DNA of 64,000 bases from Candidatus Daviesbacteria bacterium (GCA_028715175.1 JAQUSJ010000001.1:7760-71759), one strand, 5' to 3'; positions 36,862 to 56,729 are shown, counted from the first letter of the stretch. Notes: a model not told the origin generated them from the letters alone. Program-made: numbers and translations.

Positions 36862-37106
36862 GCCAAAATTATGAATCCGATAGCCAATCCAGCATGCACA
36901 ATAGCTATCGCTCTGAGTAAAGGCGAAATTCTTGTTATAAGAGTCTTGCTCATTAAATCAACTTGTCTAACAATAATCAAGGAAAATATAGCGTAAAATA
37001 TCAAAATTAGCAAAATTGCACCTTTGGTAAAGATCAAAATATAATCATTGCTTATTAAGCTTTGTGTTACAGTTGTAGGCATTGTTTCCCTATTCCGGAA
37101 CCACAC
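36846..37106 (-). CDS. small membrane protein
   Basis: Two TM helices; overlaps the upstream gene by 16 nt. Confidence 0.3.
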   Translation of the reverse strand: MWFRNRETMPTTVTQSLISNDYILIFTKGAILLILIFYAIFSLIIVRQVDLMSKTLITRISPLLRAIAIVHAGLAIGFIILAWGIL

Positions 37107-37647
37107 GAGTGTATGGTTTTCCGATTAAATCCAGGATTATATCTGCAACCGTCGCCGGATGTGGAATATTGTGCATCTCTATAGCGACAGTCGCGCCGGC
37201 TGTTTGAACTTTGACATTGCCGAAATTAAATAAAGTCCCGAGTATGCCGGCAGTGACAGAATCGGTTTCTTCTATTTTTGGTAGCGGCGCCAAATCAACC
37301 GCTTTATAAAGCAGATATTCAAACTCCATATCAATAATTTTTTCATTAGTGACAATAGAGACATTAAAATACCAATTCAAAAATCCTTCAAAAACAACTA
37401 TCAGGACAAAAAGGTAATTGATGATTATCCCTGCCAACTGATAGGTTTCCGGAAACAAGGCCAGATCAAAACCTATCAGAGGAACTATCTTAAACACTGC
37501 AAAAGGAATAAAAAAAATAAATATCGAAAGAGCGATCCAGGACAAATTGGTAATCGGGTGAGCGCGTAACAAAAGCAGTATCTTCTCATTAGGGTCCTGC
37601 CCTTCGAAACGGCAATTGCTGGGCCGCTCAATATATGCGGAAAACAT
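37090..37647 (-). CDS. membrane protein with bacterial PH (bPH_2/YdbS-like) domain
   Basis: Two N-terminal TM helices followed by a roughly 90-aa soluble domain. Confidence 0.4.
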   Translation of the reverse strand: MFSAYIERPSNCRFEGQDPNEKILLLLRAHPITNLSWIALSIFIFFIPFAVFKIVPLIGFDLALFPETYQLAGIIINYLFVLIVVFEGFLNWYFNVSIVTNEKIIDMEFEYLLYKAVDLAPLPKIEETDSVTAGILGTLFNFGNVKVQTAGATVAIEMHNIPHPATVADIILDLIGKPYTRVVPE

Positions 37648-39566: not shown

Positions 39567-40673
39567 ATGTCCAAAGTTTTTGCAAATACTCTTTTTGTCT
39601 TAATTTTATTTTTCCTTCTCTTTTTTATTGGTTTACCTGAAACAGTGTGGGCAGGCGCAATCTATTGTACTCCACAAAATGTAGAGGTTGAAACAAACAA
39701 TGATTTTAATACTAAAGTAACCATAAGCACACAAGGCACTGCTATTAGAGATGGCGATAAACTTGCAATGGATATTTTTAATAACAAAGAGAGGGTTAAA
39801 CAATCAGAAGAGGTTACAGTAGAAAATCAAACTGTAGTTTTTAACTTAGGAAAATTAATTCCCGGAACATATTCTTATAATTTATTTCGAGTCGAAACAC
39901 CTCGTTCGCAAACATTATGTCTTGGTCGACAAGATGGAGCTATCTTTAGTGTCGATGAAAAAGGCCAGGGAGGAGAAATAACTGCAAGCAATAATATTGA
40001 ATTCATACCTAGCTCTCCCACCCCAAGAGACATTATTTTTGTTCGTGTAAAAAATCTACCAGAGGATACGGCATATTTGGTAGCCTTTTCGCGCGGCAAA
40101 GAACAAATTAGCCAAACCAGACCTAGCCGATGTTTTATTTCAGATAACCAAGAATTTGCTTTTTATATCGAACCTCTTGAAGCAGGTTACTGGAATGTAG
40201 TCGTCTCTAAAAAAGCCGGACAACCAAATGACGATCAATGCCAGTTCGCTACCGGATCTCCATTAGCTAGTGGAACAATTAGAATTTCTGAAACTGATAT
40301 TGTTATTCCCACTAAACCACCTCAAAAGGCCTCAGCAAAAGGAGATCCTTGTGATGATAAAGAAAGAGGGCCGGCATTTAAGACTGCCATTGGCTGTATT
40401 CATACCAACCCAACAGAACTTATTAAAGATATCCTCACCTTTGTTATTGGTATCTCCGGAGGACTAGCATTTTTAATGATGCTTTTGGGGGCATTTCAGA
40501 TGTTAACCTCTGCTGGAAATCCTGAAACTTTGAATGCAGGTAAAGATAGATTAACCAGTGCAATCATTGGACTTTTGTTTATTGTTTTTGCAATACTACT
40601 ACTACAAATTATTGGAGTTGGTATACTAAGCATACCAGGATTTGGCAAAGGTTTACCAAATAAATTTATATGA
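39567..40673 (+). CDS. secreted protein with C-terminal VirB2/TrbC-like 2-TM pilin-like module
   Basis: C-terminus GAFQMLTSAGNPETLNAGKDRLTSAIIGLLFIVFA is homologous to the five downstream small paralogs. Confidence 0.45.
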   Translation: MSKVFANTLFVLILFFLLFFIGLPETVWAGAIYCTPQNVEVETNNDFNTKVTISTQGTAIRDGDKLAMDIFNNKERVKQSEEVTVENQTVVFNLGKLIPGTYSYNLFRVETPRSQTLCLGRQDGAIFSVDEKGQGGEITASNNIEFIPSSPTPRDIIFVRVKNLPEDTAYLVAFSRGKEQISQTRPSRCFISDNQEFAFYIEPLEAGYWNVVVSKKAGQPNDDQCQFATGSPLASGTIRISETDIVIPTKPPQKASAKGDPCDDKERGPAFKTAIGCIHTNPTELIKDILTFVIGISGGLAFLMMLLGAFQMLTSAGNPETLNAGKDRLTSAIIGLLFIVFAILLLQIIGVGILSIPGFGKGLPNKFI

Positions 40674-40993
40674 ATAAGTTGGCATTAACATTACCCGGAA
40701 CCGGAAATATTATAGACAGCCCTGTTCAAGACAGGTTTCCCGATCTTGGGAGTGTTCTTTCAGGTCTTCTAAATATTACCTTCTATATTGCCGTATTCAT
40801 AACTTTCTACTTTTTCATTTGGGGAGCTTTTGCTTATATTGTGGCTCAAGGCAAAAAAGAAGATTTAGCCAAAGCCAGAAATAGAATTACCTGGTCACTA
40901 ATTGGGCTAATAATAATATTTCTGTCGTATTTTATAGCCAGATTTGTTGCCGAAATTCTCAAGACTAACATCAAAGGAGGGCTACCGTTCTGA
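40670..40993 (+). CDS. VirB2/TrbC-like 2-TM pilin-like protein (paralog 2)
   Basis: WGAFAYIVAQGKKEDLAKARNRITWSLIGL core between two TM helices; ATGA start/stop overlap with the upstream gene. Confidence 0.45.
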   Translation: MNKLALTLPGTGNIIDSPVQDRFPDLGSVLSGLLNITFYIAVFITFYFFIWGAFAYIVAQGKKEDLAKARNRITWSLIGLIIIFLSYFIARFVAEILKTNIKGGLPF

Positions 40994-41061
40994 AAAAATT
41001 TCCGATTCTACTTGCCCGGGTTAACATTGATGAAAAATTTGGCTTTGGAGGAATCACTTCA

Positions 41062-41310
41062 TTGGGGAAAGCAACCAGTGATTTGGTACCCCCTATATTT
41101 TCTATTGCAACAGCACTGGTAGTTATGTATTTCCTGTGGGGGGCTTTAAAATTTTTAATGTCCGGAGCAAACAAAGAAGAAACAGCCGAGGCAAGACAAA
41201 TGATTACCCATGCCATAATAGGGTTTATAATATTAATATTCGCATTTTTTATTTTGCAGTTCTTATTGAACGGTTTATTCAATATAAAGGATTTTCAAAT
41301 AATCAAATGA
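41062..41310 (+). CDS. VirB2/TrbC-like 2-TM pilin-like protein (paralog 3)
   Basis: WGALKFLMSGANKEETAEARQMITHAIIGF core; TTG start. Confidence 0.45.
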   Translation: MGKATSDLVPPIFSIATALVVMYFLWGALKFLMSGANKEETAEARQMITHAIIGFIILIFAFFILQFLLNGLFNIKDFQIIK

Positions 41311-41762
41311 AAATTTTATCTTTACTCATAATATTTTTTACATTTTTGCTTTTAACAAATAACGTTTATGCTCTTGACTGTTCTGGAGCAGATAAAGATA
41401 GAGTTGAGTGTAGATTCGGCACGATTACTCCTCCTTCACCCATAGCGGGTTTTATTGGTGGTGACCAAACAGGCACGGCAGGAATCAGTAAATTTTTATC
41501 AAATGGTGTGGCCCTCATTTACTCTATTGCGGTGGTAATTTTAGTTTTTATGCTCCTTTGGGGATCATTTGAATGGATAATCTCCGAAGGAGATAAAGAA
41601 AAAATCGCTGCCGCCCAAAAAAGAATCCTTAATGCCATTATTGGCATAATTCTTTTTGCCGTTGCTTTTGCCGTTATAAAACTTTTGGGCCAATTTACCG
41701 GTTTTGAATTTTTTGTAGGACAAAATCCACCATCTCTCTTGCCATATGAAAGAACTATATAA
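41307..41762 (+). CDS. VirB2/TrbC-like 2-TM pilin-like protein (paralog 4) with signal peptide
   Basis: WGSFEWIISEGDKEKIAAAQKRILNAIIGI core; ATGA overlap with the upstream gene (start taken at MKILSLL). Confidence 0.45.
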   Translation: MKILSLLIIFFTFLLLTNNVYALDCSGADKDRVECRFGTITPPSPIAGFIGGDQTGTAGISKFLSNGVALIYSIAVVILVFMLLWGSFEWIISEGDKEKIAAAQKRILNAIIGIILFAVAFAVIKLLGQFTGFEFFVGQNPPSLLPYERTI

Positions 41763-41808
41763 CCGCCGCTTGACAAATAAATTTTTGTGTGACTAAAATA
41801 AATTGTAG

Positions 41809-42192
41809 ATGAAAAAATTATTAGCTTTGCCCTCTGCTATTACTGCTTTATCAATACCTGTACTAACATTTGCTGCAGACGAAAAGATAAATATCAGTCC
41901 TCCCCCGTACGGCTATAAAAGCCTTGGCGGCTTTGTTACTAACCTAATCACTATTGCTTTTAGCGTTGCTATCCTGACAGTTTTGGTTATGCTTATCTGG
42001 GGAGCATTTGAATGGATTGTATCCGGAGGTGACAAAGAAGCTGTAGGTAAGGCCAGAAACAGAATTCTCAATGCTCTCATAGGTTTAGCTGTTTTGGCAA
42101 TAGCCTTTGCTCTGGCAACTGTTGGCGCTCAAATTTTAGGTTTCCCAGATATCACAAGCGGCCTCCCTATCCCGACACCGCCTCCACAATAA
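41809..42192 (+). CDS. VirB2/TrbC-like 2-TM pilin-like protein (paralog 5) with signal peptide
   Basis: WGAFEWIVSGGDKEAVGKARNRILNALIGL core. Confidence 0.45.
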   Translation: MKKLLALPSAITALSIPVLTFAADEKINISPPPYGYKSLGGFVTNLITIAFSVAILTVLVMLIWGAFEWIVSGGDKEAVGKARNRILNALIGLAVLAIAFALATVGAQILGFPDITSGLPIPTPPPQ

Positions 42193-42222
42193 ACTTCGTA
42201 AGATTGATCTGCAACGATATTC

Positions 42223-42576
42223 GTGGTAAGTTTAAAGTATATGGGCCCAGACGCTGCAGGTTTAACAGAAATTGAAAGAGTTATCGGTAATGTTATTTCC
42301 GTTATTGTAGGTCTTGGACTTATTGCCATGCTGGTGATGTTAATTTGGTCTGGATTTAAGTTCCTTTTTTCCGGCGGAGACCCCAAAGCTGTGGAGGTTG
42401 CCCGTCTGACATTTGCCTGGGCAATTTTAGGAATTATTTTTATGGCTATTGCCTGGTTAATTTTGCAGCTTATTGCAAGCTTTACCGGATTACCAGTAAC
42501 AGTATTTAATATAAAAAGTCTATGCGGTGACCCGCAAGCAAATTTTCCGTTTTGCAGCCCATCACCTGCCCCTTAA
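42223..42576 (+). CDS. VirB2/TrbC-like 2-TM pilin-like protein (paralog 6)
   Basis: WSGFKFLFSGGDPKAVEVARLTFAWAILGI core. Confidence 0.45.
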   Translation: MVSLKYMGPDAAGLTEIERVIGNVISVIVGLGLIAMLVMLIWSGFKFLFSGGDPKAVEVARLTFAWAILGIIFMAIAWLILQLIASFTGLPVTVFNIKSLCGDPQANFPFCSPSPAP

Positions 42577-44433: not shown

Positions 44434-47400
44434 TTAAAGAGCCATCTTATCAAATAACCAACCAGCCCAATCGCGGCCATCATACTTTCTAACCCATTGA
44501 CCATTTTCAGCTACAAACCAGTAATAAGGCTTCCTAAGGAATGAGTAGACTTCTGCTTCAGCCGGATATGCCTGCGCTCCGCCTCCGGGCCCCTTATCCA
44601 GCAACCAATCTACGTAAGCGTTCCAAAACATTCTTGCAATATGCCTGGAAGTCCCGGTATTCTTTTCCTTCTCCAGGGCTATAGCCGGATTAAACCTACC
44701 ATTGGGTAAAAAGACATCTGTTTTTCTTAAATCTAAAGCTCCACCTGCATTTCTCTGATCCGAATACATTGTCCTAACTTTTCTTAATGTATCCCATACT
44801 CTACCAAAATTTTCCAGTAGTATATGAAATACTTCCACTTCTCCCTCAGGCTTCTGAAGAGCTTCAACTAGTTTCTCTCTGATCTTTAACACATCTTCAG
44901 AATTATTGGTTGGCTTCATTAATAAACCTTCATGATGATCCCCTGTCTTAGGATCAGTACCACCAATCAAAGCAAACCATAATATAGTACTGCTATCCAT
45001 CAGATTAATAAATTTAGTGATAGCAAATTGACTGGCTATTCTTTGGTTTGTTAATTCATGAATCTTATCATCCATCATTGAAACCGCTCCCATTACCCCA
45101 TGACGCCCTAAATTACCAGCCATGGTATCTGCGTGCATAGGAGCTACAGAGAGTGCTGCCTTAAGTCTTCTAGCCCATCTGTCAGGCATTTTGGCAGTCA
45201 AAGCTTCAATTTGCAAAGAAAATCTAAAATCACCCCCAAGATCTTCAGTATAATAACCAGTACCCATATGTTCCTTATTACCATCATTAGGCAAAGATCG
45301 CTCCTTGAAAACATTTCTTACCCCAACCCAACCTAAAAGCGACTCTTCAACCGCAGCATCAAAAACAATCCCTTCCAAAGTCATTTGTTCCCCAGCAAAC
45401 TCTTTGACCCGGCACAAAGTGGGATCCAACGTCAGAAGTAAACCAGCAAAAATATCAGCATCTTCTGGCCGTAACTTTCCATCCCTGATTTGTCTGGCTT
45501 GGTCAATTACATAATCAGGCAACAAAGTATGCGTATTGTTGCTTTGATAAGCCCAATAAGTGTGAGCTGTATGCAGGGCTAACCAACTGTCTGCGGCAGT
45601 CGGGACATCCAAATCAACTTCTTCAACAAAAACAAATGTTCCGTCACCCCGTTCTGTTAAAATATATTTAGGATTGTCTTCAAGACCATAATGCAGGATA
45701 AGGTTACCAAGATCTATAAGTTTACGATCCTTTCCTCCGGGTTTATCATAAATAATGAGCTTACCGCTTGTTGCATCAAAATCGCTCTCGCCTAAACCAA
45801 CAGGTTTACCACTTTTATCGTAACCAAAGATAGGCTGACTGTTTTCATCAAAAGCAATAATAGGTAGCCCATTTTGGCTGTAGCCGAAAACATGCGGCCT
45901 TTTTAACTTCATCTGGCTAAGAGCAATTGGCTGAAGTTCAATCATACCGGACTTTAATTCACCATTCTCATCAAAATAATCTAAGTAATTAGCTGCATAA
46001 TCAGCATCAGAAAATTTTGCCGCAAATCCTTTTTCATAAATGGCATCTACCGCCCTTTCAAGTGCTTTCTGTACCATGGCTTCTCTGTATCTAGCTCTAA
46101 AATTAGGGTACCTATACTGATCATTTTCATCCTTACCCTCTACTCTTTCCTTAAACCCTTCTGTTTGCCAAATAGGTGAGTCGTCTCTATATTTCATCCG
46201 TATCCAATTTACAACAGCCATACCGGCTTTTTGAGCCAGATGGGCTGGGATATGATCAAATGTAAGATTTTCTCTGTCCGCAGGATTCAGGCTGTTATAT
46301 AGAGCTTGTTCTGTAGGAGGAAAAGAATCCAGTCGCCTACCTTTAGCTATCTCATCCAAAATCCATCCTTTATGCTGATTCTCGGTAAAACCTTTTCTTC
46401 TCTGCGCAGGCGACCATTGGCTGATATCAGGATCTGAAGCTTTTTGCTCCTTATGATTGTCCTGCCGGAATTTCAAATACTCCCGGACATATTGATTTTT
46501 ACCAACGAAATAAACTGCTCCACCTCTGATAGTTGTTTCGTGAGTTACGCCCTGCATTTGCATAGCTACATCAAAGCTAGTTTCTGAATCGGCATAATAT
46601 TTATCGTAAAACCTCTTATCTTGTCTTTTAATCCGTTTTAACTTCACTAATTTATCAATCAATTTTTCTTTTCTCCCTAAAACTACCGTCCCTGTCCTAA
46701 CTTCCTGCCTAAGTTCATCCATTAGGGTTTGGATTCTGCCTAACTTAACAGAATCCCGTAATTTTCTGGGGAAATTCTCGGGGAGTTTATCAATATCCAA
46801 ACCTTTGTTGCGAACATATTCCTGATAGTTATTTCTGTGAGCATCGCTATTATCAAACCCATCAAACAGGGCCTTCAAAGCCTCGGCAGATTGATGAATA
46901 CCTATCCGCTCCTGATTAGTCTTCGGGTGTACTCTTTGCGCTAAATAAAATTCCCTGTCATCGTCTTCCGCAAAGCTGTCTAAATCATCATCATTCTCTT
47001 TCAGATGTTTATCAAGCTGTTCCAAGCGTACTGCCCTTTTGTAACGCAATTCTGGATCCGAAACAAGATCTACATCACGCCAGTCATAGTCTTTTAAGAC
47101 AATGCCCATGCCTCTTTCTTTTTGTATTCCATAAATTATTGCCCTGATATACTCCTGCACCTGAGTGCGATCTCCAAATTGTCCTCTTGACCCTTGGGCG
47201 TTTAAGGCAAATTCAATCATAGCCAAATTATCAAAACAAAAGGTATGAAATCCAACTCCGCATTCCTCGCCTGAGCGCAGAGCTCTAACCCATCTTTGAG
47301 GTCCTTCGTGCATAGCCATTGCCATTGCACCCTGCTTAGCCCCTTCTTTGTTATAATGCTCGCTATTGTAAAAAGTGTGCCAGAGAAAAGCCCGTCCTTC

Positions 47401-48804
47401 AAATTCCTGCCTCAGCTCTTCCACAAATCCAGAGGTCATCTGATCTGACCCAAGATCCTTATTCGCTTGCTCTAAAGCCAACTCTTCTCCCCTTGCGACC
47501 AACACTTGTTTGAAATTCATTAGGTTTTGCATTAGCTCATTTGGGTCATACCCCAAAGCTTTATTTTTGAGCATTTGCAGAAAAGATTCTTTGGCAACAC
47601 GGAATTGGGCAGGAGTCCTAGCCTTTATCGTATAATAATTCGGATAACCGCCGTATGGCTCCCAATAAAGTTCTGTTATCTCGCCTTCCTCTTCTTCGCC
47701 TGGGATATGCCATTCGCCTTCTTGATAAGAACCTGGATCTTCACCATTAATTATTTTCCTAAGTTTTCCCCGCGTCCACAGAATATATGCTGTTTCAAGA
47801 TCCATTAACGGGGGATTAACTTCAGGATCTTTTGCTTTACCAAGCAGAGCATCCTCAATGGCCTGCCGGGCTTCTGGTTCCCTCTGCATCAATAAAGCCA
47901 AAGCCTGCTGCTTCGAATAGGTTCTATTCCTAAAACCTAAAAATATTGCATTATAAACCTCATCAACCCCCTTTAGTAACCCTTTTCTATGCGCTTCTTT
48001 AAAATATTTTAGTAAATCATTTTCTACTTGTTCTCTTTCGGGAATTGAAAGATGCAAATTTAGATACTTGGCAGTTAAAGATCCTAAATCCTCGCCTCTT
48101 TTTTCAATATCAGTAAAATCTTCAGGTTCAGGTTCATCTTGCTTTTTTGCCTTTTCAACACCTTTGGCAATTCTTTCTTCATAGGCCTTTTTTATTGCAT
48201 CATGCAGCGTCTGACCGGGCTCACGCTTGACCTTGTGCTCTTCCTCAGAATCAAAATGGTCCTGCAAATATCTGTCTTTTTGTTCGGTTTTCTCAACAAA
48301 AGCAGTTAATCTTCTACACAATTCATAGAGCTTTGGACCATTTTCAGCATCCCATCTAACTTCATAAGGCAACTCCGTTTCCATGTAGGTAATCTGTTCC
48401 ACTAGCCATCTGCCTCTTTCCGGACTAGTCTCCCACTCTGGCCCACTAGTTGGCTCTGGAACTATGGGTCCCTCATCTTCTGCACCTCCTGCTACTTCTA
48501 ACATCCTTGCCATCTCTTCACCTGTTCCTGGATCGATAAAAATCCTATAACCACCCTTTTGTTTTACCGAGTATTCTTCTACTCTTTTAGAGTCAAACGC
48601 CGGTGAGATATGCCAAGATCTTTGAAGATCTTGCTTACCAGATGGCTGAGGTAAAGTTTGTCCCTCAGCTTCGGCTGATCCTGCGCCCTGCAAGGGAACG
48701 GCACCTTCTATATTCTGTGGAGGCCCAGGAGGAATACTCGCTCCTGAGGAGCCTCCCCCCTCTACTGGTGTTCCTTCTGCCATATTTCTTTCTATATTTG
48801 CCAT
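44434..48804 (-). CDS. giant hypothetical protein (1456 aa), no recognised domains
   Basis: Uninterrupted 4.4 kb ORF on the opposite strand, embedded in the T4SS-like locus; Gly/Pro-rich N-terminus; acidic. Confidence 0.5.
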   Translation of the reverse strand: MANIERNMAEGTPVEGGGSSGASIPPGPPQNIEGAVPLQGAGSAEAEGQTLPQPSGKQDLQRSWHISPAFDSKRVEEYSVKQKGGYRIFIDPGTGEEMARMLEVAGGAEDEGPIVPEPTSGPEWETSPERGRWLVEQITYMETELPYEVRWDAENGPKLYELCRRLTAFVEKTEQKDRYLQDHFDSEEEHKVKREPGQTLHDAIKKAYEERIAKGVEKAKKQDEPEPEDFTDIEKRGEDLGSLTAKYLNLHLSIPEREQVENDLLKYFKEAHRKGLLKGVDEVYNAIFLGFRNRTYSKQQALALLMQREPEARQAIEDALLGKAKDPEVNPPLMDLETAYILWTRGKLRKIINGEDPGSYQEGEWHIPGEEEEGEITELYWEPYGGYPNYYTIKARTPAQFRVAKESFLQMLKNKALGYDPNELMQNLMNFKQVLVARGEELALEQANKDLGSDQMTSGFVEELRQEFEGRAFLWHTFYNSEHYNKEGAKQGAMAMAMHEGPQRWVRALRSGEECGVGFHTFCFDNLAMIEFALNAQGSRGQFGDRTQVQEYIRAIIYGIQKERGMGIVLKDYDWRDVDLVSDPELRYKRAVRLEQLDKHLKENDDDLDSFAEDDDREFYLAQRVHPKTNQERIGIHQSAEALKALFDGFDNSDAHRNNYQEYVRNKGLDIDKLPENFPRKLRDSVKLGRIQTLMDELRQEVRTGTVVLGRKEKLIDKLVKLKRIKRQDKRFYDKYYADSETSFDVAMQMQGVTHETTIRGGAVYFVGKNQYVREYLKFRQDNHKEQKASDPDISQWSPAQRRKGFTENQHKGWILDEIAKGRRLDSFPPTEQALYNSLNPADRENLTFDHIPAHLAQKAGMAVVNWIRMKYRDDSPIWQTEGFKERVEGKDENDQYRYPNFRARYREAMVQKALERAVDAIYEKGFAAKFSDADYAANYLDYFDENGELKSGMIELQPIALSQMKLKRPHVFGYSQNGLPIIAFDENSQPIFGYDKSGKPVGLGESDFDATSGKLIIYDKPGGKDRKLIDLGNLILHYGLEDNPKYILTERGDGTFVFVEEVDLDVPTAADSWLALHTAHTYWAYQSNNTHTLLPDYVIDQARQIRDGKLRPEDADIFAGLLLTLDPTLCRVKEFAGEQMTLEGIVFDAAVEESLLGWVGVRNVFKERSLPNDGNKEHMGTGYYTEDLGGDFRFSLQIEALTAKMPDRWARRLKAALSVAPMHADTMAGNLGRHGVMGAVSMMDDKIHELTNQRIASQFAITKFINLMDSSTILWFALIGGTDPKTGDHHEGLLMKPTNNSEDVLKIREKLVEALQKPEGEVEVFHILLENFGRVWDTLRKVRTMYSDQRNAGGALDLRKTDVFLPNGRFNPAIALEKEKNTGTSRHIARMFWNAYVDWLLDKGPGGGAQAYPAEAEVYSFLRKPYYWFVAENGQWVRKYDGRDWAGWLFDKMAL

Positions 48805-49019: not shown

Positions 49020-49466
49020 TCAGGACAATCTCTTATTTAAATCTATACTTCTTAGATATTGCAAAAAGTTTGCAGGAGCCATCACCATTATATTAAAATC
49101 CTCTTTTATTTTATCTATCTTAAAATGTTTGGTGTTATAAGAAATTAGATAATTCGCTTTAGCTTTTTTTGCTCCCGCTATAATGTGGGCATCGTCTTGA
49201 TCAACAATATATTCTGAATATTTTACTTTAATTTCTTTTAACTGTTGCTTTAGATATACCTTTTTGAAGCTTCTTTTAAGAAGATTTTTAAGCTCAGTCT
49301 GATCAAGCCCTAATCTATCAGCTACTTCTATTAATTCTTTCTGAGATACATTTGAAATATATAATTTAAGATTAGTTATGCTACTGAGCAAAAGATTAGC
49401 TGCCCCTGATGAAGAAATTAACGAAGAGATGACCACATCTGAGTCAATGAATACCTTTTTAAACAT
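49020..49466 (-). CDS. PIN-domain protein (VapC-like toxin)
   Basis: VFIDSDVVISSL...YLISYNTKHF; acidic residues in PIN positions. Confidence 0.65.
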   Translation of the reverse strand: MFKKVFIDSDVVISSLISSSGAANLLLSSITNLKLYISNVSQKELIEVADRLGLDQTELKNLLKRSFKKVYLKQQLKEIKVKYSEYIVDQDDAHIIAGAKKAKANYLISYNTKHFKIDKIKEDFNIMVMAPANFLQYLRSIDLNKRLS

Positions 49467-49730
49467 TTAACTACTGTTAATCTTAGACCTGATTTTTTTA
49501 ATCTCTGCTTGTATGGTGGGGAGTTGTTTCAGATCTTCCTTTTCAGCCAAATAAAGGTCATAATCCAGTCCGGTGAAAACAAAGGAGATGGAGCTTGCCG
49601 GGACACGATAAACCTTACCGATCTTTTTAGCTATTATCTCGCCCCTTTGAATTAAATCATAAATTGTATTTTTGCTCAGTTGTAGAATATTAGCTACTTG
49701 CTCGGGAGTATATGCTTTAGTGCTAATCAT
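49467..49730 (-). CDS. helix-turn-helix DNA-binding protein (excisionase/MerR-type; antitoxin-like partner of the PIN gene)
   Basis: YTPEQVANILQLSKNTIYDLIQRGEI HTH_17-like; stop abuts the PIN start. Confidence 0.6.
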   Translation of the reverse strand: MISTKAYTPEQVANILQLSKNTIYDLIQRGEIIAKKIGKVYRVPASSISFVFTGLDYDLYLAEKEDLKQLPTIQAEIKKIRSKINSS

Positions 49731-49787: not shown

Positions 49788-50696
49788 CTATCCGCATCTT
49801 TTAACTGTCCTACAGCTAGGACAGCTCTGGCCGGCCCTGACAATACAATTTATTGCTTCACCACAAACAGGACAATTCCTACAAAAATCAGGATCTTTAG
49901 TATTTACCCCATCACCCACTACTAAAGAATTCTCTGAAAATACCTGAAAAGCAGTCTTAGGGGGGCAGCTACCAGAGTATGACCCCAACACTTGCTTAAT
50001 AGCCATTTGCGCTTCATCTGTAGAATATAGCCCTGGAATAGAGAAAAACTCTTTTTGGACCATTGTAGCCTGTCTAAGAACCTCTTCTTTCAGTCTTCTA
50101 TCTTCTCCAATTCTGACCATTTCCCATACAGCAGGCGCATCAATTAACTCTTCTAAGGCATGGATCCAAAAATTGCCATGGGTCTTTAAAATCAGCGGGG
50201 TTGCCCTGACCTGATCAAAATTGAAAAAATTTGGCTGGTTCTGGCTAAACTGCGCCAAACCACGGGCAAATTCCAGAGACTGATTCTCATCAAAATCAAA
50301 TAAAATAGCCCGGTTAAATAATCTTTTGAGACCATTCTTATACTCTATCTCGCTGACAATTATTTTTAAGACAGAATATGCTCCAAGATAGGGAGGGCTA
50401 ACCCAGACAATTACTCCCTCATTACGACTGACTGCCCACTCTTCCATAGCAACTACCGCTCTATATTCCAACTGACCCAGGTGACTAGTTTTATCTTCAA
50501 TTGTATCTTTGACCCTGCAATGAGCGGTAGGAGAAAATAACTCTCCGTTTGATCTAACTTCAAAATAATAAGGGTCAGGAACTCTGTGAGTTTCGAGGCT
50601 GTAAGAAGCTATCTCTTCAACAACTTGCTTTTCAGGTTTACCTTGCCAATTTTTGATAAAAGAAGTTATTTCTGGTCGTTCTAGTGATACTGACAT
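49788..50696 (-). CDS. hypothetical protein with C-terminal Cys-rich zinc ribbon
   Basis: CRNCPVCGEAINCIVRAGQSCPSCRTVKRCG at the C-terminus. Confidence 0.35.
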   Translation of the reverse strand: MSVSLERPEITSFIKNWQGKPEKQVVEEIASYSLETHRVPDPYYFEVRSNGELFSPTAHCRVKDTIEDKTSHLGQLEYRAVVAMEEWAVSRNEGVIVWVSPPYLGAYSVLKIIVSEIEYKNGLKRLFNRAILFDFDENQSLEFARGLAQFSQNQPNFFNFDQVRATPLILKTHGNFWIHALEELIDAPAVWEMVRIGEDRRLKEEVLRQATMVQKEFFSIPGLYSTDEAQMAIKQVLGSYSGSCPPKTAFQVFSENSLVVGDGVNTKDPDFCRNCPVCGEAINCIVRAGQSCPSCRTVKRCG

Positions 50697-51145: not shown

Positions 51146-52165
51146 ATGGAAGAAGTACATCCAATCCCGCAAAATGTGACAAGTTTCCAGTTCAAGCTGG
51201 TTGGGGATATGACCCTAAAGCAATTCGGCTATCTGGCTGCCGGCGCAGGTTTTGCTTATCTGGTTTTTGTCCTTTTCTCGCACGATTATCCAATCATAGC
51301 CTGGCCGATTGTTTTTTCTTCAACCATTTTAGGCATTGCTTTTGCTTTTGTGCCGATTGGATCACGGGCGCTGGACCACTGGTTAGCAGCATTTTTGAAA
51401 GCTGTTTATTCTCCTACTAAAAGAGCCTGGGCGAAAAACGGAAAAACTTACAAAGAAGACCCGTTGTTTGACAGCCGTCTGGTGATGTATCTTGCCGGTA
51501 CTCAAAATGCTCCTCCGGCCAAACCATCTGCTGCAACCATCACTCAAATTGCACGCCCCGCACCTTTACCAACACAAGAGAAGCTGCAAAAAACAGTAGA
51601 CCTGGCTCAAGAGGCACAACAACTGCAAATGAAGATCATCCAGTCGGAGCGGACTTTATCGCAAATTAAGGAACAGGCAACGCAACCCACACCTATACCC
51701 GTTGACTATAGCCAACAAGCCAGTAAGATCTTAACGGATTTAAAAAACCTGGTTAATCAAGCTTCCGAAGTAAAACAGCAAATTAAATCTATCCAGGAAC
51801 CAACAGTTCAACCTCAGGTTCCTATTTCCGAACCTGTCTTCAGAGAAAAAGTCAAAGTAATAGTGCCTGTGAAACCCAAACAAGCACAGATTGCGCTAAC
51901 TACATTTCCAAATGTCATAAACGGTATTGTCAAAGACAGGAACAATAATTATCTGGAAGGCGTAGTGGCAGTTATCTACGACAAAGAGGGCCTGCCTGTC
52001 CGGGCCCTAAAAACAAATAAACTCGGTCAATTTACCGGTTCAACACCGCTGCCTAATAAAACTTATACTTTGGAGCTTGAAAAAGACAATTATACTTTTG
52101 ATGTATTGCAGATTGAATTAACCGGAGAAGTTTTACCGCCTTTAGTGATTACAGCAAAATCATGA
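51146..52165 (+). CDS. PrgI-family (VirB3-like) membrane protein with extended C-terminal region
   Basis: N-terminus IPQNVTSFQFKLVGDMTLKQFGYLAAGAGFAYLVF with two TM helices is typical of the PrgI family preceding VirB4 in Gram-positive T4SS. Confidence 0.5.
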   Translation: MEEVHPIPQNVTSFQFKLVGDMTLKQFGYLAAGAGFAYLVFVLFSHDYPIIAWPIVFSSTILGIAFAFVPIGSRALDHWLAAFLKAVYSPTKRAWAKNGKTYKEDPLFDSRLVMYLAGTQNAPPAKPSAATITQIARPAPLPTQEKLQKTVDLAQEAQQLQMKIIQSERTLSQIKEQATQPTPIPVDYSQQASKILTDLKNLVNQASEVKQQIKSIQEPTVQPQVPISEPVFREKVKVIVPVKPKQAQIALTTFPNVINGIVKDRNNNYLEGVVAVIYDKEGLPVRALKTNKLGQFTGSTPLPNKTYTLELEKDNYTFDVLQIELTGEVLPPLVITAKS

Positions 52166-52932
52166 ATACAACACAGGAACATTTATCTATTTCAGATATT
52201 CGGGACGATATTCTTTTGCTGAAAGACGGGGGCGGGGCGCTTGTTCTGCAAGTCAGCGCTGTTAATTTTGGCTTACTTTCAGACAGGGAACAGGTGGCTA
52301 TCATTTCCGCATTCGCCCAAATGCTTAATTCCTTATCATTCAGCATCCAAATTGTCATCCATTCGGAAAGGCTCAACATCAGCTCTTATCTGAAAATATT
52401 GGATGACGCCAAAAAAGCCCAAAACAACCCGCTGCTTTCACAAATGATTACGGGATATAGACAATTTATCCAAACTACAATCAAAGAAAATGAGGTATTG
52501 GATAAAAGGTTTTATATTGTCATTCCGCTTTTCGCGCTAGAGCTGGGGCTAACTCCATCCAGAGAAAGTTTGGAGGGAAAAATTAAAACAATACTCATAC
52601 CAAGACGGGATCAAATTGTCAGACAGCTAGGCAGAGTCAATCTGAAAGCGATGCATCTGACCAAACAAAAATTGATTGAAGTTTTTTATTATATCTATAA
52701 TGGTCAAGTTGAGGAAAAACCGCCGGGACAAATCGTCAATCCGCAAGAATTAGCAGTTAAATTAAAACAACCCGTTCGACTCGCTGACGCTCGCTCAGGG
52801 CCTTCGGCCGCACAACCAACTTTTAATCCCGCAGCACAACAGCCAACATCACCAATCCCACCTGTGACAGAACCAATAACCACTCAAGGCACAAAAACAC
52901 ATCCTTTTGTAGTGGAGGAGTTAGGAGAATGA
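52162..52932 (+). CDS. VirB4/TcpF/PrgJ-type ATPase, N-terminal domain (separately encoded)
   Basis: LSISDIRDDILLLKDGGGALVLQVSAVNFGLLSDREQVAIISAFAQMLNSLSFSIQIVIHSERL matches the N-terminus of Gram-positive VirB4 homologs; ATGA overlap with the next ORF. Confidence 0.55.
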   Translation: MNTTQEHLSISDIRDDILLLKDGGGALVLQVSAVNFGLLSDREQVAIISAFAQMLNSLSFSIQIVIHSERLNISSYLKILDDAKKAQNNPLLSQMITGYRQFIQTTIKENEVLDKRFYIVIPLFALELGLTPSRESLEGKIKTILIPRRDQIVRQLGRVNLKAMHLTKQKLIEVFYYIYNGQVEEKPPGQIVNPQELAVKLKQPVRLADARSGPSAAQPTFNPAAQQPTSPIPPVTEPITTQGTKTHPFVVEELGE

Positions 52933-54698
52933 AGCTACCAAATTTATTTAGAAAAACAAAAACTCAGGAACAACTGCAACCCCAATTAACCGTTGAGGAT
53001 GTGATTGCTCCGGGCGAAATAGAAGTGGAGTTTAGTCATCTGAAGATAGACAGCCGTTTTTTCCGGACTTATTTTGTATCGGCTTACCCCAGATTTGTTG
53101 AGCCTAACTGGCTTGAACCGCTAATTTCTTTTGACCATTCGCTCCTTGTTTCGATGTTTATTTACCCGTCGCAATCGCAAGGAGTACTGGATGAACTAAA
53201 GCGCAAAGTAGCTGAAATGGAAGCCACGATCCAGACCGATCTTGAACGGGGCAGAGCAGTGGATCCTGCGGTCGAAGTAGCCTTGGAAGATGCACGGAGC
53301 TTACAAGACCAGCTTGTCAGGGGGGTTGAACGATTCTTTCAATTTACCCTCTATATTACTGTGCCGGCAGAGAGCCTGGAAGAGCTGCAAAGCACTTCAA
53401 AACTGGTTGAATCAACACTTGCTTCCCTTTCTATAACCGCCAGACAGGTAACACTGCAAATGGAGGACGGCTTCAAATCCACCTTGCCGCAAGGAAAAGA
53501 TCTTCTAAATCTCGCCCATAACATGGATACCACGTCGCTAGCTACAACTTTCCCGTTTGCCTCGTCTGAACTGACTGCCAACGAGGGAATCATGTACGGC
53601 ATTAACGAGCATAATGGTTCCCTGATTTTATTTGACAGATTCAGTTTAGAAAATGCAAACTCGGTTATTTTCGCCAAAAGCGGAGCCGGCAAATCGTATT
53701 TAGTTAAACTTGAAGCCCTCAGATCTTTAATGTTTGGGACAGAAATAATTGTCATTGACCCGGAGCAGGAATACAAAATTTTGGCTCAGGCTGTTGGCGG
53801 AGAATATATTAATTTCTCCCCTTCGTCTCCGGTAAAAATCAATCCGTTTGATATGTCAGCCGAAGTAACTCCGGGTGAAAATGAACTGGGCCGTAAAATT
53901 CTGTCTTTAACCGGTTTTTTAAAATTGGTTTTGGGAACGCTAAATGCCCAAGAAGCCGCCATACTGGATAGAGCCTTAAAACAAACATACCAGCTCAAAG
54001 GAATCACAGATGATCCTAAAACCCAAACCAATCCGCCAGCTGGCGGACCTCCTTTAATGGAAGATTTATACAAAGTTTTAATCGGCATGGAAGAAGCTGT
54101 AGCTATGGAACTGGCAGCCCGCTTGGAGCGATTTATTAAAGGATCGCTCGCCGGTATTTTCTCCACCCAATCCAATGTTGATATTTCCAACTCGTTTACA
54201 GTATTTTCGGTCCGCGATTTGCCGGACCAGCTAAGACCGCTATCCATCCATATGATCTTAGACTATATATGGACCAAGATCAGAGGCAAACTCAAGAAAA
54301 GACTTTTGATTGTTGATGAAGCATGGTATTTGATGCGGAATCAGGATTCGGCGGATTTTTTGGTAGATATGGCCAAACGTGCCAGGAAATATTATTTAGG
54401 CTTAACTACCATTACGCAAGACGTGGAGGATTTCTTGAGTAACGAGCGGGGCAAAGAAATTATTTCCAATTCATCAATCCAAATTCTCCTGAAACAAGCT
54501 CCTGCTTCAATCGACCTTTTGGCCCATGTTTTTAACCTGTCAGAAGGGGAACAGAGACTTTTGATGTCAGAAGGAATTGGTGAAGGGATATTTTTTGCCG
54601 GCAATACCCATGTGGCAATGAGGGTGGTGGCTTCTCCGGAGGAACATCAATTGATTACCTCAAATCCTGCTGAAATACTGGCAAGACAGAAGATTTAG
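52929..54698 (+). CDS. VirB4/TcpF/PrgJ-type ATPase, C-terminal P-loop domain
   Basis: Walker A IFAKSGAGKSYLV, Walker B LLIVDEAWYLM, typical CagE/TrbE/VirB4 C-terminal region. Confidence 0.75.
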   Translation: MKLPNLFRKTKTQEQLQPQLTVEDVIAPGEIEVEFSHLKIDSRFFRTYFVSAYPRFVEPNWLEPLISFDHSLLVSMFIYPSQSQGVLDELKRKVAEMEATIQTDLERGRAVDPAVEVALEDARSLQDQLVRGVERFFQFTLYITVPAESLEELQSTSKLVESTLASLSITARQVTLQMEDGFKSTLPQGKDLLNLAHNMDTTSLATTFPFASSELTANEGIMYGINEHNGSLILFDRFSLENANSVIFAKSGAGKSYLVKLEALRSLMFGTEIIVIDPEQEYKILAQAVGGEYINFSPSSPVKINPFDMSAEVTPGENELGRKILSLTGFLKLVLGTLNAQEAAILDRALKQTYQLKGITDDPKTQTNPPAGGPPLMEDLYKVLIGMEEAVAMELAARLERFIKGSLAGIFSTQSNVDISNSFTVFSVRDLPDQLRPLSIHMILDYIWTKIRGKLKKRLLIVDEAWYLMRNQDSADFLVDMAKRARKYYLGLTTITQDVEDFLSNERGKEIISNSSIQILLKQAPASIDLLAHVFNLSEGEQRLLMSEGIGEGIFFAGNTHVAMRVVASPEEHQLITSNPAEILARQKI

Positions 54699-54713
54699 TG
54701 ATACCTTAATCTT

Positions 54714-56729
54714 ATGGCCCAATTCTTAAAAGCAAAGTTTTTAAGCGATGCTTTAAAGTGGAAAGCTGATTCGAGGCATGCAGCTGACAAATACTTTGCA
54801 GGTTTAAAGTATGATCCTTTCATCTTTCAACAAGCAAGATTAACTTTCCCCTCATATGATAAACGCTACCCTGTTCCGGCTAATAAAGAATTTGCTGAAA
54901 ACTTTGCCAGAGATTTAGCAAATCCAACCAGAAATAAAGAACTACTGAGAATAATCAACCCAGAGATTCTTACCCCAGAGTTGGAGGCGGCAAATCAACA
55001 GTTTGAGACAGCAGCGCGCCTGGAACAGCAGCAAGTAGCCCAGGCAACCGGCCAACCACCTGTCCAACCATTTTCCTTATCTGCACCACCCAGACCAATG
55101 CAACCGCGCATCATTCCTACTGTGGTAACCCCACCAGTAACCAAGGAAGAAGCAGCTGCCAAAACGCCGACAGAGGTACCTGCTGCCCAACCTCCCCCAG
55201 CCTCAACCCAACTTCCCCCACTGCCACAACAAATATTCAATGCTAATAGAAGCGGAATAGTCGCAAGAATGCGTAACATACAACCTCCCAACTGGCTGAA
55301 AAATCTTGGATCTAGTACGCGAATATTTGCCAGAAAGAATTTGGGCAGGATATTTGACGGCCTTAGAGGGATTATTGGAGGAATAGGCAGAGGAGTAGGA
55401 GGAGCTGTCAGCACAGGATTGGGCGCTACCGCTCCATCCTTAGGTCGAGCATTTCACGGGGGCTTAAATGCTGTTGGAAGAATTACCCAACCAGGAGGAG
55501 TTGATGGAATACCTTCGGGAGGATTAGTCAAATCACCTGTTGGGAAAAGAGGTGCTATAGCTCTACTTTTAGCAATGTTCCTGTTTGTCTTTATATCAGG
55601 TTTTCTGGGAGGATTAACAGAACCCACTTCGTCCCTTAAAGCTGCATCATTACCATCAGGCGGTGGAGATATCAGTAGTTGTAAATTCACCAGATCAGGC
55701 AACTCTCAACTCATCAAAAGCTCTATTCTCTCGGGTTGGATTAGCGGCGTAGCAGCTTCAGCGGGAATCCCACCAGCAGCTTTAGCCAGCATAGCTATGC
55801 ATGAAAATCCGAATTTTACAACCAACGCTGACAATAACCATGACGCTATAACATCTAACCAGTTTTGTAATAAAGGTGTAATGTTTTGCGAGGATGGACA
55901 GGGGCATGTTTTACATACCAAAGCAGACGATGGCATAAACGACCCTTGTACGCCAGCTGAAATTGCGACCGGGAATAGAACCGCTCAAGCAGTTGGATTA
56001 ATGCAAATTCTTGATATCTATAACCCAGGAAAAGATTTATGCAGTATCACGGAAAATTTAGCTATCGCAGCGGCAAAACTCAAAGCAAGCGGGATGACAG
56101 TACAACCCACTCAGGACCAAGTTAACGCTTCTATCAGTGGTTATTACAATGGCTGTACATATGGAAACTACAATTACTGTAATGAGGTCTGGCAAGATCT
56201 ACAAAACTGCCAAGTACAACCCGGAATTCCTCCTGTAGGCGGAGATTTTGCCAGCCAGTTAGTTGATAAAATCAAAAAATCATTGGCTTGCAATGGCTTT
56301 GTGACAATTTTTAATCATGATGCCTGCATAGCTTCAATCCAACCCATTCCACAGCTGTCTGCCCAGGCAATCCATAATTCAGTATTTAATGTAACGGGTA
56401 ATGTTTTACAATGTGTTGGCTTTGCACAAGCAATTGCTACAGATTTAATTGGAACAACCGGAAATGCGATTAACTATATATCAAATAATATCCCAGGTTA
56501 TCGTTTTATTATCCGAGAAAATAATCAAATTCAAGTAGGTGATTTACCTGTTTGGAGTGCGACTACTGATAGACGATACGGGCATATCGCTTATGTAACG
56601 AGTGTTCAAAATAACGGTACATTTCAAGTGGCAGAAGCAAATTTTTGCCCACAAGATTGTGGTAAAGTAGATTTACGAATTGATTCAGTTAATGACGATC
56701 AAATAGTTGGCTGGCTAAGGAAGAGATGA
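54714..56729 (+). CDS. T4SS-associated peptidoglycan hydrolase (PrgK/TcpG-like) with C-terminal CHAP domain
   Basis: CHAP Cys/His (LQCVGFAQA...RYGHIAYV); central region with transglycosylase-like IAMHENPNF; TM helix; Pro-rich linker. Confidence 0.65.
   Translation: MAQFLKAKFLSDALKWKADSRHAADKYFAGLKYDPFIFQQARLTFPSYDKRYPVPANKEFAENFARDLANPTRNKELLRIINPEILTPELEAANQQFETAARLEQQQVAQATGQPPVQPFSLSAPPRPMQPRIIPTVVTPPVTKEEAAAKTPTEVPAAQPPPASTQLPPLPQQIFNANRSGIVARMRNIQPPNWLKNLGSSTRIFARKNLGRIFDGLRGIIGGIGRGVGGAVSTGLGATAPSLGRAFHGGLNAVGRITQPGGVDGIPSGGLVKSPVGKRGAIALLLAMFLFVFISGFLGGLTEPTSSLKAASLPSGGGDISSCKFTRSGNSQLIKSSILSGWISGVAASAGIPPAALASIAMHENPNFTTNADNNHDAITSNQFCNKGVMFCEDGQGHVLHTKADDGINDPCTPAEIATGNRTAQAVGLMQILDIYNPGKDLCSITENLAIAAAKLKASGMTVQPTQDQVNASISGYYNGCTYGNYNYCNEVWQDLQNCQVQPGIPPVGGDFASQLVDKIKKSLACNGFVTIFNHDACIASIQPIPQLSAQAIHNSVFNVTGNVLQCVGFAQAIATDLIGTTGNAINYISNNIPGYRFIIRENNQIQVGDLPVWSATTDRRYGHIAYVTSVQNNGTFQVAEANFCPQDCGKVDLRIDSVNDDQIVGWLRKR

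Follow-up and report, generated by a model that had tools for sequence, protein, structure and literature searches.

Type IV secretion systems (T4SSs) of the Patescibacteria have been described as monoderm-type (MPF-FATA-like) and origin-proximal, with arrays of VirB2-like pilin genes and no relaxase (Wang et al. 2023, PMC10633639; Quinonero-Coronel et al. 2025, PMC12102498). In the one species examined, the system of this class is required for epibiotic growth, and protein export has been proposed for the class with no substrate known (PMC10633639; PMC12102498). No earlier T4SS had been shown to be essential for its own carrier (PMC10633639, PMC12857230, PMC12102498). The present study concerns a stretch of 64,000 nucleotides (nt) from a Candidatus Daviesbacteria genome (GCA_028715175.1, JAQUSJ010000001.1:7760-71759), hereafter the window, and a gene of its minus strand which encodes a protein of 1456 amino acids (aa), hereafter the giant, inside a T4SS-like locus. 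Daviesbacteria are ultrasmall bacteria and part of the Patescibacteria, also named Candidate Phyla Radiation (CPR).

The locus resembles those described in other Patescibacteria by its PrgI, its TrsD/TraC-like protein, its VirB4, its hydrolase, its pilin array and its divergent VirB6-like protein, as well as by the proximity of dnaN and dnaA and the lack of a relaxase nearby. It differs from the accounts of PMC10633639 and PMC12102498 by the giant itself, which is mentioned in neither of them; their neighbourhood analyses use hidden Markov model (HMM) families and the giant matches none. The corresponding locus of S. epibionticum has no giant homologue and encodes, in the equivalent region, an NTF2-like protein and two membrane proteins of ~1000 aa that bear ARM-like domains. 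The analyses presented here suggest that the giant is very probably a real and dedicated partner of this T4SS, belonging to an undescribed protein family, and lead us to propose, more tentatively, that it is exported by the machine or acts at the interface with the host.

A large and fast-evolving gene in a fixed position

Full-length members of the family were found in a readable genomic context in 14 distinct loci, the one of the window included. In all 14 the giant occupies the same slot, between the PrgI-TraC-like-VirB4 operon on one side and the VirB6-like gene and pilin array on the other, and its orientation is equally constant, divergent from the PrgI-TraC-like-VirB4-hydrolase genes and tail-to-tail with a VirB6-like gene of ~600-690 aa, beyond which 3-10 pilin genes are present wherever the contig extends that far. 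The slot is kept by members sharing only 17-26% identity, including those aligning over the C-terminal domain alone. The gene is single-copy per locus and is neither absent nor relocated in any of the 14, over a range of VirB4 identity of 69-85%. Conversely, a giant was retrieved in all eight loci having both a VirB4 at least 80% identical to that of the window and sufficient upstream DNA. The original prediction considered the protein as an orphan and a candidate T4SS cargo: its link with the T4SS is borne out by the co-occurrence with VirB4 in 14/14 loci, but the orphan premise has to be abandoned, with 20 further full-length homologues and 74 representative clusters now identified. For full-length members, neither homology to a housekeeping enzyme nor conservation in genomes lacking T4SS genes was found.

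The giant is the longest open reading frame (ORF) of the window, about twice the length of the runner-up (786 codons), and the probability of 1456 stop-free codons, computed from the base composition of the window, is ~5e-44. The single unbroken 4.4 kb ORF of the original prediction was thus retained, as were its other descriptors: the 166 kDa protein is acidic (isoelectric point 5.38), Gly or Pro constitutes 19 of its first 60 residues, and a Kyte-Doolittle scan (19-residue windows, cut-off 1.6) peaked at 1.26, detecting neither a transmembrane (TM) helix nor a hydrophobic signal peptide. No hydropathy segment of at least 1.6 was found in the 34 family members submitted to a hydropathy scan. 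The protein is 100% identical to PHE48_00375, a hypothetical protein of a Candidatus Daviesbacteria metagenome-assembled genome (NCBI), and the GC content of the gene is like that of the surrounding DNA.

The conservation of position is accompanied by a high divergence of sequence. Between locus L015 and the window, identity reaches 85% for VirB4, 64% for DnaN, 60% for PrgI and 54% for the VirB6-like protein, against 24.5% for the giant. In L013, the corresponding values are 69% for VirB4, 53% for DnaN, 48% for the VirB6-like protein and 26% over 593 aa for the giant; in L011 and L012, 82-84% for VirB4, 55-59% for the VirB6-like protein and ~32% for the giant. In the closer L001 and L002, VirB4 is 84-85% identical, the giant 48-52% and the pilins 37-67%, with the hydrolase at 41% in L002. 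By these comparisons no large gene of the locus evolves faster than the giant, which outpaces a housekeeping gene and falls in the range of surface-exposed parts. Its pace is that of the pilins and the cell-wall hydrolase, and in this respect it behaves like surface or host-facing components.

Family, architecture and surroundings of the giant

A word-indexed search of a 90%-clustered database provided the 20 further full-length homologues, at 32-73% identity, the named ones all being affiliated to Daviesbacteria; profile searches with the same word-indexed tool returned just the same 21 close proteins. A profile of giant residues 270-1456, compared exhaustively by HMM with 1.84 billion representatives, extended the family to 74 representative clusters at E<=1e-3, 54 of them at E<=1e-30, nearly all members being 1200-2140 aa long. 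In alignments of 29-34 diverse members, homology runs over most of the length although columns are on average just 14-17% identical. Among the GTDB species representatives six loci were retrieved, four titled Daviesbacteria and two titled Gammaproteobacteria. The public records of two loci, L009 (CAZJNI010000001.1) and L011 (CAZCNP010000003.1), are titled "uncultured Gammaproteobacteria bacterium"; this taxonomy looks wrong because both hold a Daviesbacteria-type T4SS locus with a VirB4 83-84% identical to that of the window.

Searches for known relatives were negative throughout. No Pfam family was matched by the giant or by any of the 34 aligned members; NCBIfam and PADLOC gave no match for the giant and PHROG nothing meaningful. 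PDB sequence searches with the single giant and with a superfamily profile returned low-complexity matches only. Foldseek searches of both giant models against PDB, together with a BFVD search, gave no match with E <0.01, the best template-modelling (TM) scores, ~0.1, being to generic alpha-solenoids. Neither a Walker A, nor a relaxase 3H, nor an HExxH motif is conserved among the 34 members, and no paralogue of the giant was found elsewhere in the window. These outcomes, including the remote-homology and structure-prediction searches, reveal no housekeeping homology for full-length members, and leave the family undescribed, with no match to anything known.

Several precise identities were considered and rejected. 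A VirD4-type coupling ATPase (type IV coupling protein, T4CP) would require features that are lacking here, namely a conserved Walker A, a Pfam P-loop match and a TM segment, and a VirB6/TrbL protein, extended or not, would be expected to have at least five TM helices where the giant has none. A MOB relaxase does not fit with the lack of a 3H motif in the 34 members, the lack of a relaxase Pfam match and the variable, disordered N-terminus. An Rhs/YD-repeat toxin was set aside, with only 3-4 YD-like hairpins present and RHS_repeat (PF05593) undetected by Pfam, and so was a CagA homologue, with no Pfam or PDB sequence match and no Foldseek match for the N-terminal model, the C-terminal model being too poor to judge. 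The idea of a target of a diversity-generating retroelement, which came from Avd-like neighbours, was dropped as no template/variable repeat pairs were found.

The family has a common layout (Table 1) composed of a disordered N-terminus, a long all-alpha block, a linker of YD-like beta hairpins, a C-terminal domain of ~400 aa and, at the very end, an amphipathic W..WLF.K helix. Both AlphaFold2 models of the giant were built on shallow alignments of 20-21 sequences. Residues 1-105 show a column conservation of 0.19-0.40, are gap-rich and contain 42% of Gly, Pro, Ala and Ser, and the N-terminal model, which covers residues 101 onward, starts at a predicted local distance difference test (pLDDT) value <50. 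The all-alpha block is modelled as nearly all helix (mean pLDDT 74.6, predicted template-modelling score 0.59) and includes a ~90-aa module predicted as a beta hairpin and two helices, with W381, A404, P421 and F431 near-invariant. The linker has the lowest conservation and the most gaps of the protein, and forms beta strands in the model; the 3-4 YD-like hairpins are located at residues ~960-1060. No internal repeats were found in the giant.

The C-terminal domain is the common core of all distant matches of the exhaustive search. Seven of its residues are invariant in the alignments of 29-34 members (Y1083, Q1087, D1127, R1213, K1297, R1335 and Y1413), R1335 being replaced by T in 2/34, and it displays the motifs TYxxYQxE, LxxDPTLxR, RFARR, EGLxxKPTNxxD, GRLE, RNAxGALxLE, TGxSRH and GGGxxxY. 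The original description of a domain-less protein without catalytic motif thus holds for known motifs and Pfam domains, but overlooked this conserved domain and its seven invariant residues. The model of the domain is poor (pLDDT 57) and ends in a beta hairpin followed by the terminal helix, for which pLDDT rises to ~78-85. The terminal motif is retained in some form across the superfamily (tails of 21 close and 34 distant members), its strict pattern being present in 17/34 giants versus 0/447 background ORFs, and the giant holds a second, internal copy of the W-motif (YVDWLLDK, residues 1397-1404). We know of no C-terminal translocation signal defined for monoderm or CPR systems.

Parts of this layout recur outside the family. 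Three complete proteins of 323-485 aa, referred to as "mini" proteins (P0086, P0088 and P0090), were weak matches of the exhaustive search and share with giant residues ~370-460 the ~90-aa module (local hmmsearch E 1e-17 to 1e-27). Each also contains 2-3 copies of KPTN[DE]xDxL and W[DE]W[LFM]xxK between G/P-rich linkers; these correspond to the K1297 motif and the terminal motif of the giant, in an order permuted relative to it. One "mini" gene is surrounded by housekeeping genes, the 10 kb on either side being devoid of T4SS genes. The motif copies in these proteins, together with the internal W-motif of the giant, suggest that the short motifs are modular binding peptides.

The slot itself was also surveyed beyond the family. 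A metagenome scan with VirB4 gave 80 loci at 58-88% identity, none of them (0/80) with a detectable giant-family member, the loci at 81-88% being on contigs too short to reach the slot. Loci with VirB4 at 59-72% and enough sequence present other large ORFs of 669-1478 aa in the same slot and on the opposite strand, which are either devoid of TM segments or hydrophobic in just one tail at the C-terminus, and those scanned have no Pfam match. We rejected that these positional analogues are divergent giant homologues (hmmsearch --max E >0.1, hhalign probability <1%) and that they share the terminal motif (0/12 by strict pattern). A large and fast-changing partner beside VirB6 therefore seems to be general in these loci, the giant representing one well-defined family, and the presence of unrelated large proteins in one slot suggests a general principle of a "variable giant partner" for CPR T4SS loci.

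Table 1. Coordinates of the giant, of its parts and neighbours in the window, and of related or analogous genes in other loci
Feature	Position	Strand	Remarks
Giant ORF, 1456 aa + stop	44434..48804	-	Uninterrupted, ATG start; member of the T4SS-locus family
Shine-Dalgarno AAGGAGAGG	48818-48810	-	5 nt ahead of giant ATG at 48804
Promoter-like TTGACA-18 nt-TATGCT	48870-48841	-	~35 nt beyond the Shine-Dalgarno of the giant
Residues 1-105, variable Gly/Pro/Ala/Ser-rich N-terminal region	48490..48804	-	Probably disordered
Residues 110-940, conserved all-alpha block	45985..48477	-	From conservation profile and AlphaFold model
Residues ~370-460, ~90-aa module	47425..47697	-	E-x-YW...YY-x-V-x-A-x-T-x-EQF..A..F; also in "mini" proteins
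Residues 941-1060, variable linker	45625..45984	-	YD-like beta-hairpin repeats FGY..G.P / YDKSGKP / IIYDKP
Residues 1061-1456, C-terminal domain	44437..45624	-	Strongest conservation in the superfamily
Residues 1446-1456, extreme C-terminal motif W-A-G-W-L-F-D-K-M-A-L	44437..44469	-	K1453 near-invariant
VirB6-like polytopic membrane protein, 596 aa	42616..44406	+	VirB6-like by topology and position only
Five VirB2-like T4SS_pilin genes (PF18895), array	39567..42576	+	
PIN / HTH_17 toxin-antitoxin-like pair	49020..49730	-	Between giant and 302-aa gene
302-aa protein, C-terminal Cys4 zinc ribbon (CRNCPVCG...CPSCR)	49788..50696	-	Same strand as giant
PrgI (VirB3-like), TraC-like/TrsD, VirB4 ATPase, CHAP cell-wall hydrolase	51146..56729	+	Operon divergent from giant
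VirB4	52929-54698	+	Within the PrgI-TraC-like-VirB4-hydrolase operon
VirD4-like ORF, 780 aa	5177-7519	-	Two N-terminal hydrophobic segments
Positional analogues	L022 2861-6167; L024 5414-7573; L040 1515-4931; L050 2538-6092		
Positional analogues	L052 2648-7081; L063 515-4072; L071 1311-4937		And others
"Mini" proteins	L099 10001-11458; L097 406-1761		

The surroundings of the giant agree with the T4SS-like locus originally proposed, with the five T4SS_pilin genes, PrgI, TraC-like/TrsD, VirB4, CHAP hydrolase and a SpoIID near dnaN and dnaA, two Big_5 proteins preceding the latter two. The gene convergent with the giant, 27 bp separating the two stop codons, was rightly called VirB6-like as far as topology is concerned: the protein has a signal-like segment followed by six hydrophobic segments, with no Pfam or NCBIfam match. 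It adjoins the giant in every locus, at 41-78% identity among loci. The VirD4-like ORF, located ~37 kb from the giant and ~45 kb from virB4, gave weak matches to DUF87/HerA, TrwB_AAD_bind, TraG-D_C and FtsK (E 2.6e-6 to 9e-4); a coupling ATPase of VirD4 type encoded apart from the locus has been reported for many Patescibacteria. The zinc-ribbon protein, which has no Pfam, PHROG or PADLOC match, is kept between PrgI and the giant in Daviesbacteria-type loci (300-480 aa), is missing from more distant ones, and could be an adaptor or a chaperone. It is found beside PrgI in L089 as well.

The promoter-like site of the giant is suggestive by its position alone, such sites not being commoner in the overall scan than in shuffled sequence. 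Concerning the translation start, many members begin with M-P-[DEN]-G or with an upstream extension of the form MAxxExxMAEG, and the giant of the window holds both M1, with a strong Shine-Dalgarno, and M8 (MAEGTP). The extreme N-terminus, conserved in the family, may matter, or start sites may differ among members.

Insertions gather in the DNA immediately upstream of the giant, a hotspot of toxin-antitoxin pairs, AAA_14/DUF4143 genes and Avd-like cassettes in which the cargo varies and the giant is constant. This DNA contains the PIN/HTH_17 pair in the window, and PIN/PhdYeFM, MazE/PIN, RelB/YafQ or AAA_14-DUF4143 among L001, L002, L004 and L015. A four-helix gene of the 23S_rRNA_IVP/bAvd type lies directly upstream of the giant in L016 (1454-1828), L005 (3463-3855) and L006 (123-515); the one of L016 is flanked by 46-nt direct repeats and resembles a small cassette. 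On the other side, beyond SpoIID, positions 34978-37647 of the window (minus strand) encode proteins of 185 aa (weak bPH_2), 86 aa and 627 aa (one hydrophobic segment), and L015 holds size-matched genes (184, 76 and 620 aa) in identical order, so that conservation of the locus may reach past the recognised T4SS genes.

Possible roles of the giant

The reading that we favour, while holding it tentatively, is that of a lineage-specific protein dedicated to the Patescibacteria T4SS of Microgenomatia/Daviesbacteria type and exported by it or acting at the host interface, for which we infer recognition by the machine, translocation and action on a host. The giant would be made in the cytoplasm without a Sec signal, and its C-terminal domain and short motifs would be recognised by an inner-membrane complex in which VirB4 and PrgI join the VirB6-like protein and, possibly, the VirD4-like ATPase encoded far away. 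Export by the T4SS would then take it to the cell surface, to the pilus or into the host bacterium, where its rapidly diverging N-terminal two-thirds would find their host-specific targets, in a CagA-like arrangement of one island with one dedicated giant substrate serving the epibiotic lifestyle. The giant having no Sec signal or TM helix, any export must use a dedicated route. We favour this reading because of this absence of Sec signal, the host-facing rate of evolution and the contrast between variable N-terminal sequence and a conserved C-terminal domain, and also because of the motifs shared with outside proteins, the VirD4-like ATPase and the T4SS class without known substrate. Known T4SS substrates carry a conserved C-terminal recognition module, and by analogy the variable N-terminal part and the conserved C-terminal domain with its terminal motif would match this logic, while the motifs and the ~90-aa module recurring in "mini" proteins would look like a recognition code shared by several substrates.

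Other observations weigh against export. The giant is single-copy, clade-universal and fixed in position, which are traits of a machine component, unlike the usual repertoires of effectors. In the model, the conserved terminal motif folds into a helix packed after a beta hairpin (pLDDT ~80) and may be structural instead of an exposed signal; among 1010 ORFs of the first 96 related loci, it was found only in giants. The seven invariant polar residues could mark an intracellular enzyme, and rapid divergence is by itself no proof of extracellular exposure. Finally, the T4SS of S. epibionticum, the only genetically studied one among Patescibacteria, lacks a giant homologue and has extended VirB6-like proteins in the slot.

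Some of these traits would be accounted for by a giant that remains in the cell as an accessory or structural component of the machine, docked on the cytoplasmic face of the complex of VirB6-like protein, VirB4 and PrgI, an explanation which is the main rival of export and which we regard as only somewhat less likely. It could take the form of a detached "extended VirB6" alpha-solenoid domain, a scaffold, a gate or a substrate adaptor. One copy in every locus of the clade, always tail-to-tail with the VirB6-like gene, is what a machine part would show, and the all-alpha prediction goes in the same direction, the best, non-significant fold matches being alpha-solenoids such as importin-beta (E 0.019, TM ~0.1). 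The S. epibionticum region includes two essential ~1000-aa VirB6-like proteins (one weakly supported) with ARM-repeat-like hydrophilic domains, and VirB6 homologues are reported to be scarce in Microgenomatia, suggesting a remodelled inner-membrane complex. The folded model of the terminal motif, and the single hydrophobic tail ending some positional analogues, like that of tail-anchored cytoplasmic proteins, are also consistent with it. However, a part of the machine has to fit partners such as VirB4 and the VirB6-like protein, at 85% and 54% identity when the giant is at 24.5%, and no homology to VirB6, VirB8, VirB11, VirD4 or any T4SS family is detectable. The gene is moreover on the strand opposite to both machine operons, with its own promoter-like site, and the filling of the slot by unrelated proteins of 669-1478 aa in sister lineages is easier to conceive for cargo than for a core part.

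A bolder version of the export reading seems unlikely to us: the giant would be the universal translocated "host-interface" protein of the Microgenomatia-type T4SS, of which the motifs [IG]xKPTN[DE]xDxL, W[DE]W[LFM]xxK and EGPxR and the YW..YY..EQF module would constitute a new recognition code shared with small, multivalent "mini" substrates whose genes lie elsewhere in the genome. If true, it would offer a first handle on transport by the essential Patescibacteria T4SS, and would explain the unrelated giants in the slot of other lineages as cargo adapted to each host and exchanged in the course of an arms race.

We consider as very improbable that the giant is an unconventional nucleic-acid-processing enzyme, analogous to a relaxase or recombinase and involved in DNA or RNA transfer or uptake, whose phosphoryl-transfer site would be built from the invariant Tyr, Arg and Lys. 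The conservation of Y, Q, D, R, K, R and Y across sequences only ~17% identical would suit such an enzyme, as would the large, soluble and acidic nature of the protein, reminiscent of conjugative relaxases such as TraI; these T4SS loci have no known relaxase, the literature allows for "very different relaxases", and a 2026 preprint proposes host-RNA feeding by related bacteria. Yet the 34 members are devoid of an HUH/3H motif, of a catalytic-Tyr domain at the N-terminus, of a helicase P-loop and of any Pfam match to a relaxase, recombinase or topoisomerase, the N-terminus, usual site of the relaxase domain, is the least conserved region and is disordered, and DNA-processing enzymes rarely fall to 25% identity while DnaN stays at 64%. 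Least credible of all is an unrelated passenger, whether selfish, defence-like or housekeeping, inserted in the recombination hotspot between the T4SS operons: the intergenic zone upstream does collect toxin-antitoxin pairs, AAA_14/DUF4143 genes and Avd-like cassettes, but this cargo varies while the giant is constant in 14 loci (VirB4 69-85%), has no PADLOC or meaningful PHROG match and has the GC content of its surroundings.

The Patescibacteria constitute a large share of bacterial diversity, and their T4SSs appear in the literature without substrate and without relaxase. The giant, missed by published HMM-based surveys, is a concrete candidate for what these systems transport or for a gate specific to one lineage: it is Pfam-less, fixed in the locus of one major lineage and evolves several-fold faster than the machine. 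Should it instead be a cytoplasmic scaffold, it would still represent a new class of T4SS component.

Comparison with known T4SS-associated proteins

Although the family matches nothing known, its concept has precedents in CagA and the extended VirB6 proteins. The latter, including the RvhB6 paralogues of Rickettsia, TraG of the F plasmid and SEML1_0011/0013 of S. epibionticum, bring large hydrophilic and mostly helical domains to the VirB6 channel subunit. The gene of the giant likewise always lies beside a VirB6-like gene, but the giant is a separate polypeptide encoded on the opposite strand, with no TM segment and no detected VirB6/TrbL homology. Conjugative relaxases such as TraI and TrwC are also large, soluble, T4SS-associated and themselves translocated; the giant differs from them by the lack of an HUH/3H motif, of a helicase P-loop and of a Pfam relaxase match.

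The X-Tfes of Xanthomonas combine a variable N-terminal part with a conserved C-terminal XVIPCD domain bound by VirD4. The giant is divided in a similar way, with the differences that the XVIPCD has ~120 aa and is found on many effectors per genome, whereas the domain of the giant has ~400 aa, an unrelated sequence and a single bearer per locus.

CagA is a fast-evolving and Sec-independent protein of ~1200 aa encoded inside a T4SS island, largely alpha-helical with a disordered region and carrying C-terminal information for its delivery. The giant is similar in outline to this protein of the cag pathogenicity island of Helicobacter pylori, being large, fast-evolving, devoid of a Sec signal and encoded in a T4SS island. 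They have no similarity of sequence or fold, and the disordered part is C-terminal in CagA and N-terminal in the giant. The translocation of CagA is proven and that of the giant is proposed. Their targets differ as well, the bacterium producing CagA attacking a eukaryotic cell, while the carrier of the giant lives on another bacterium.

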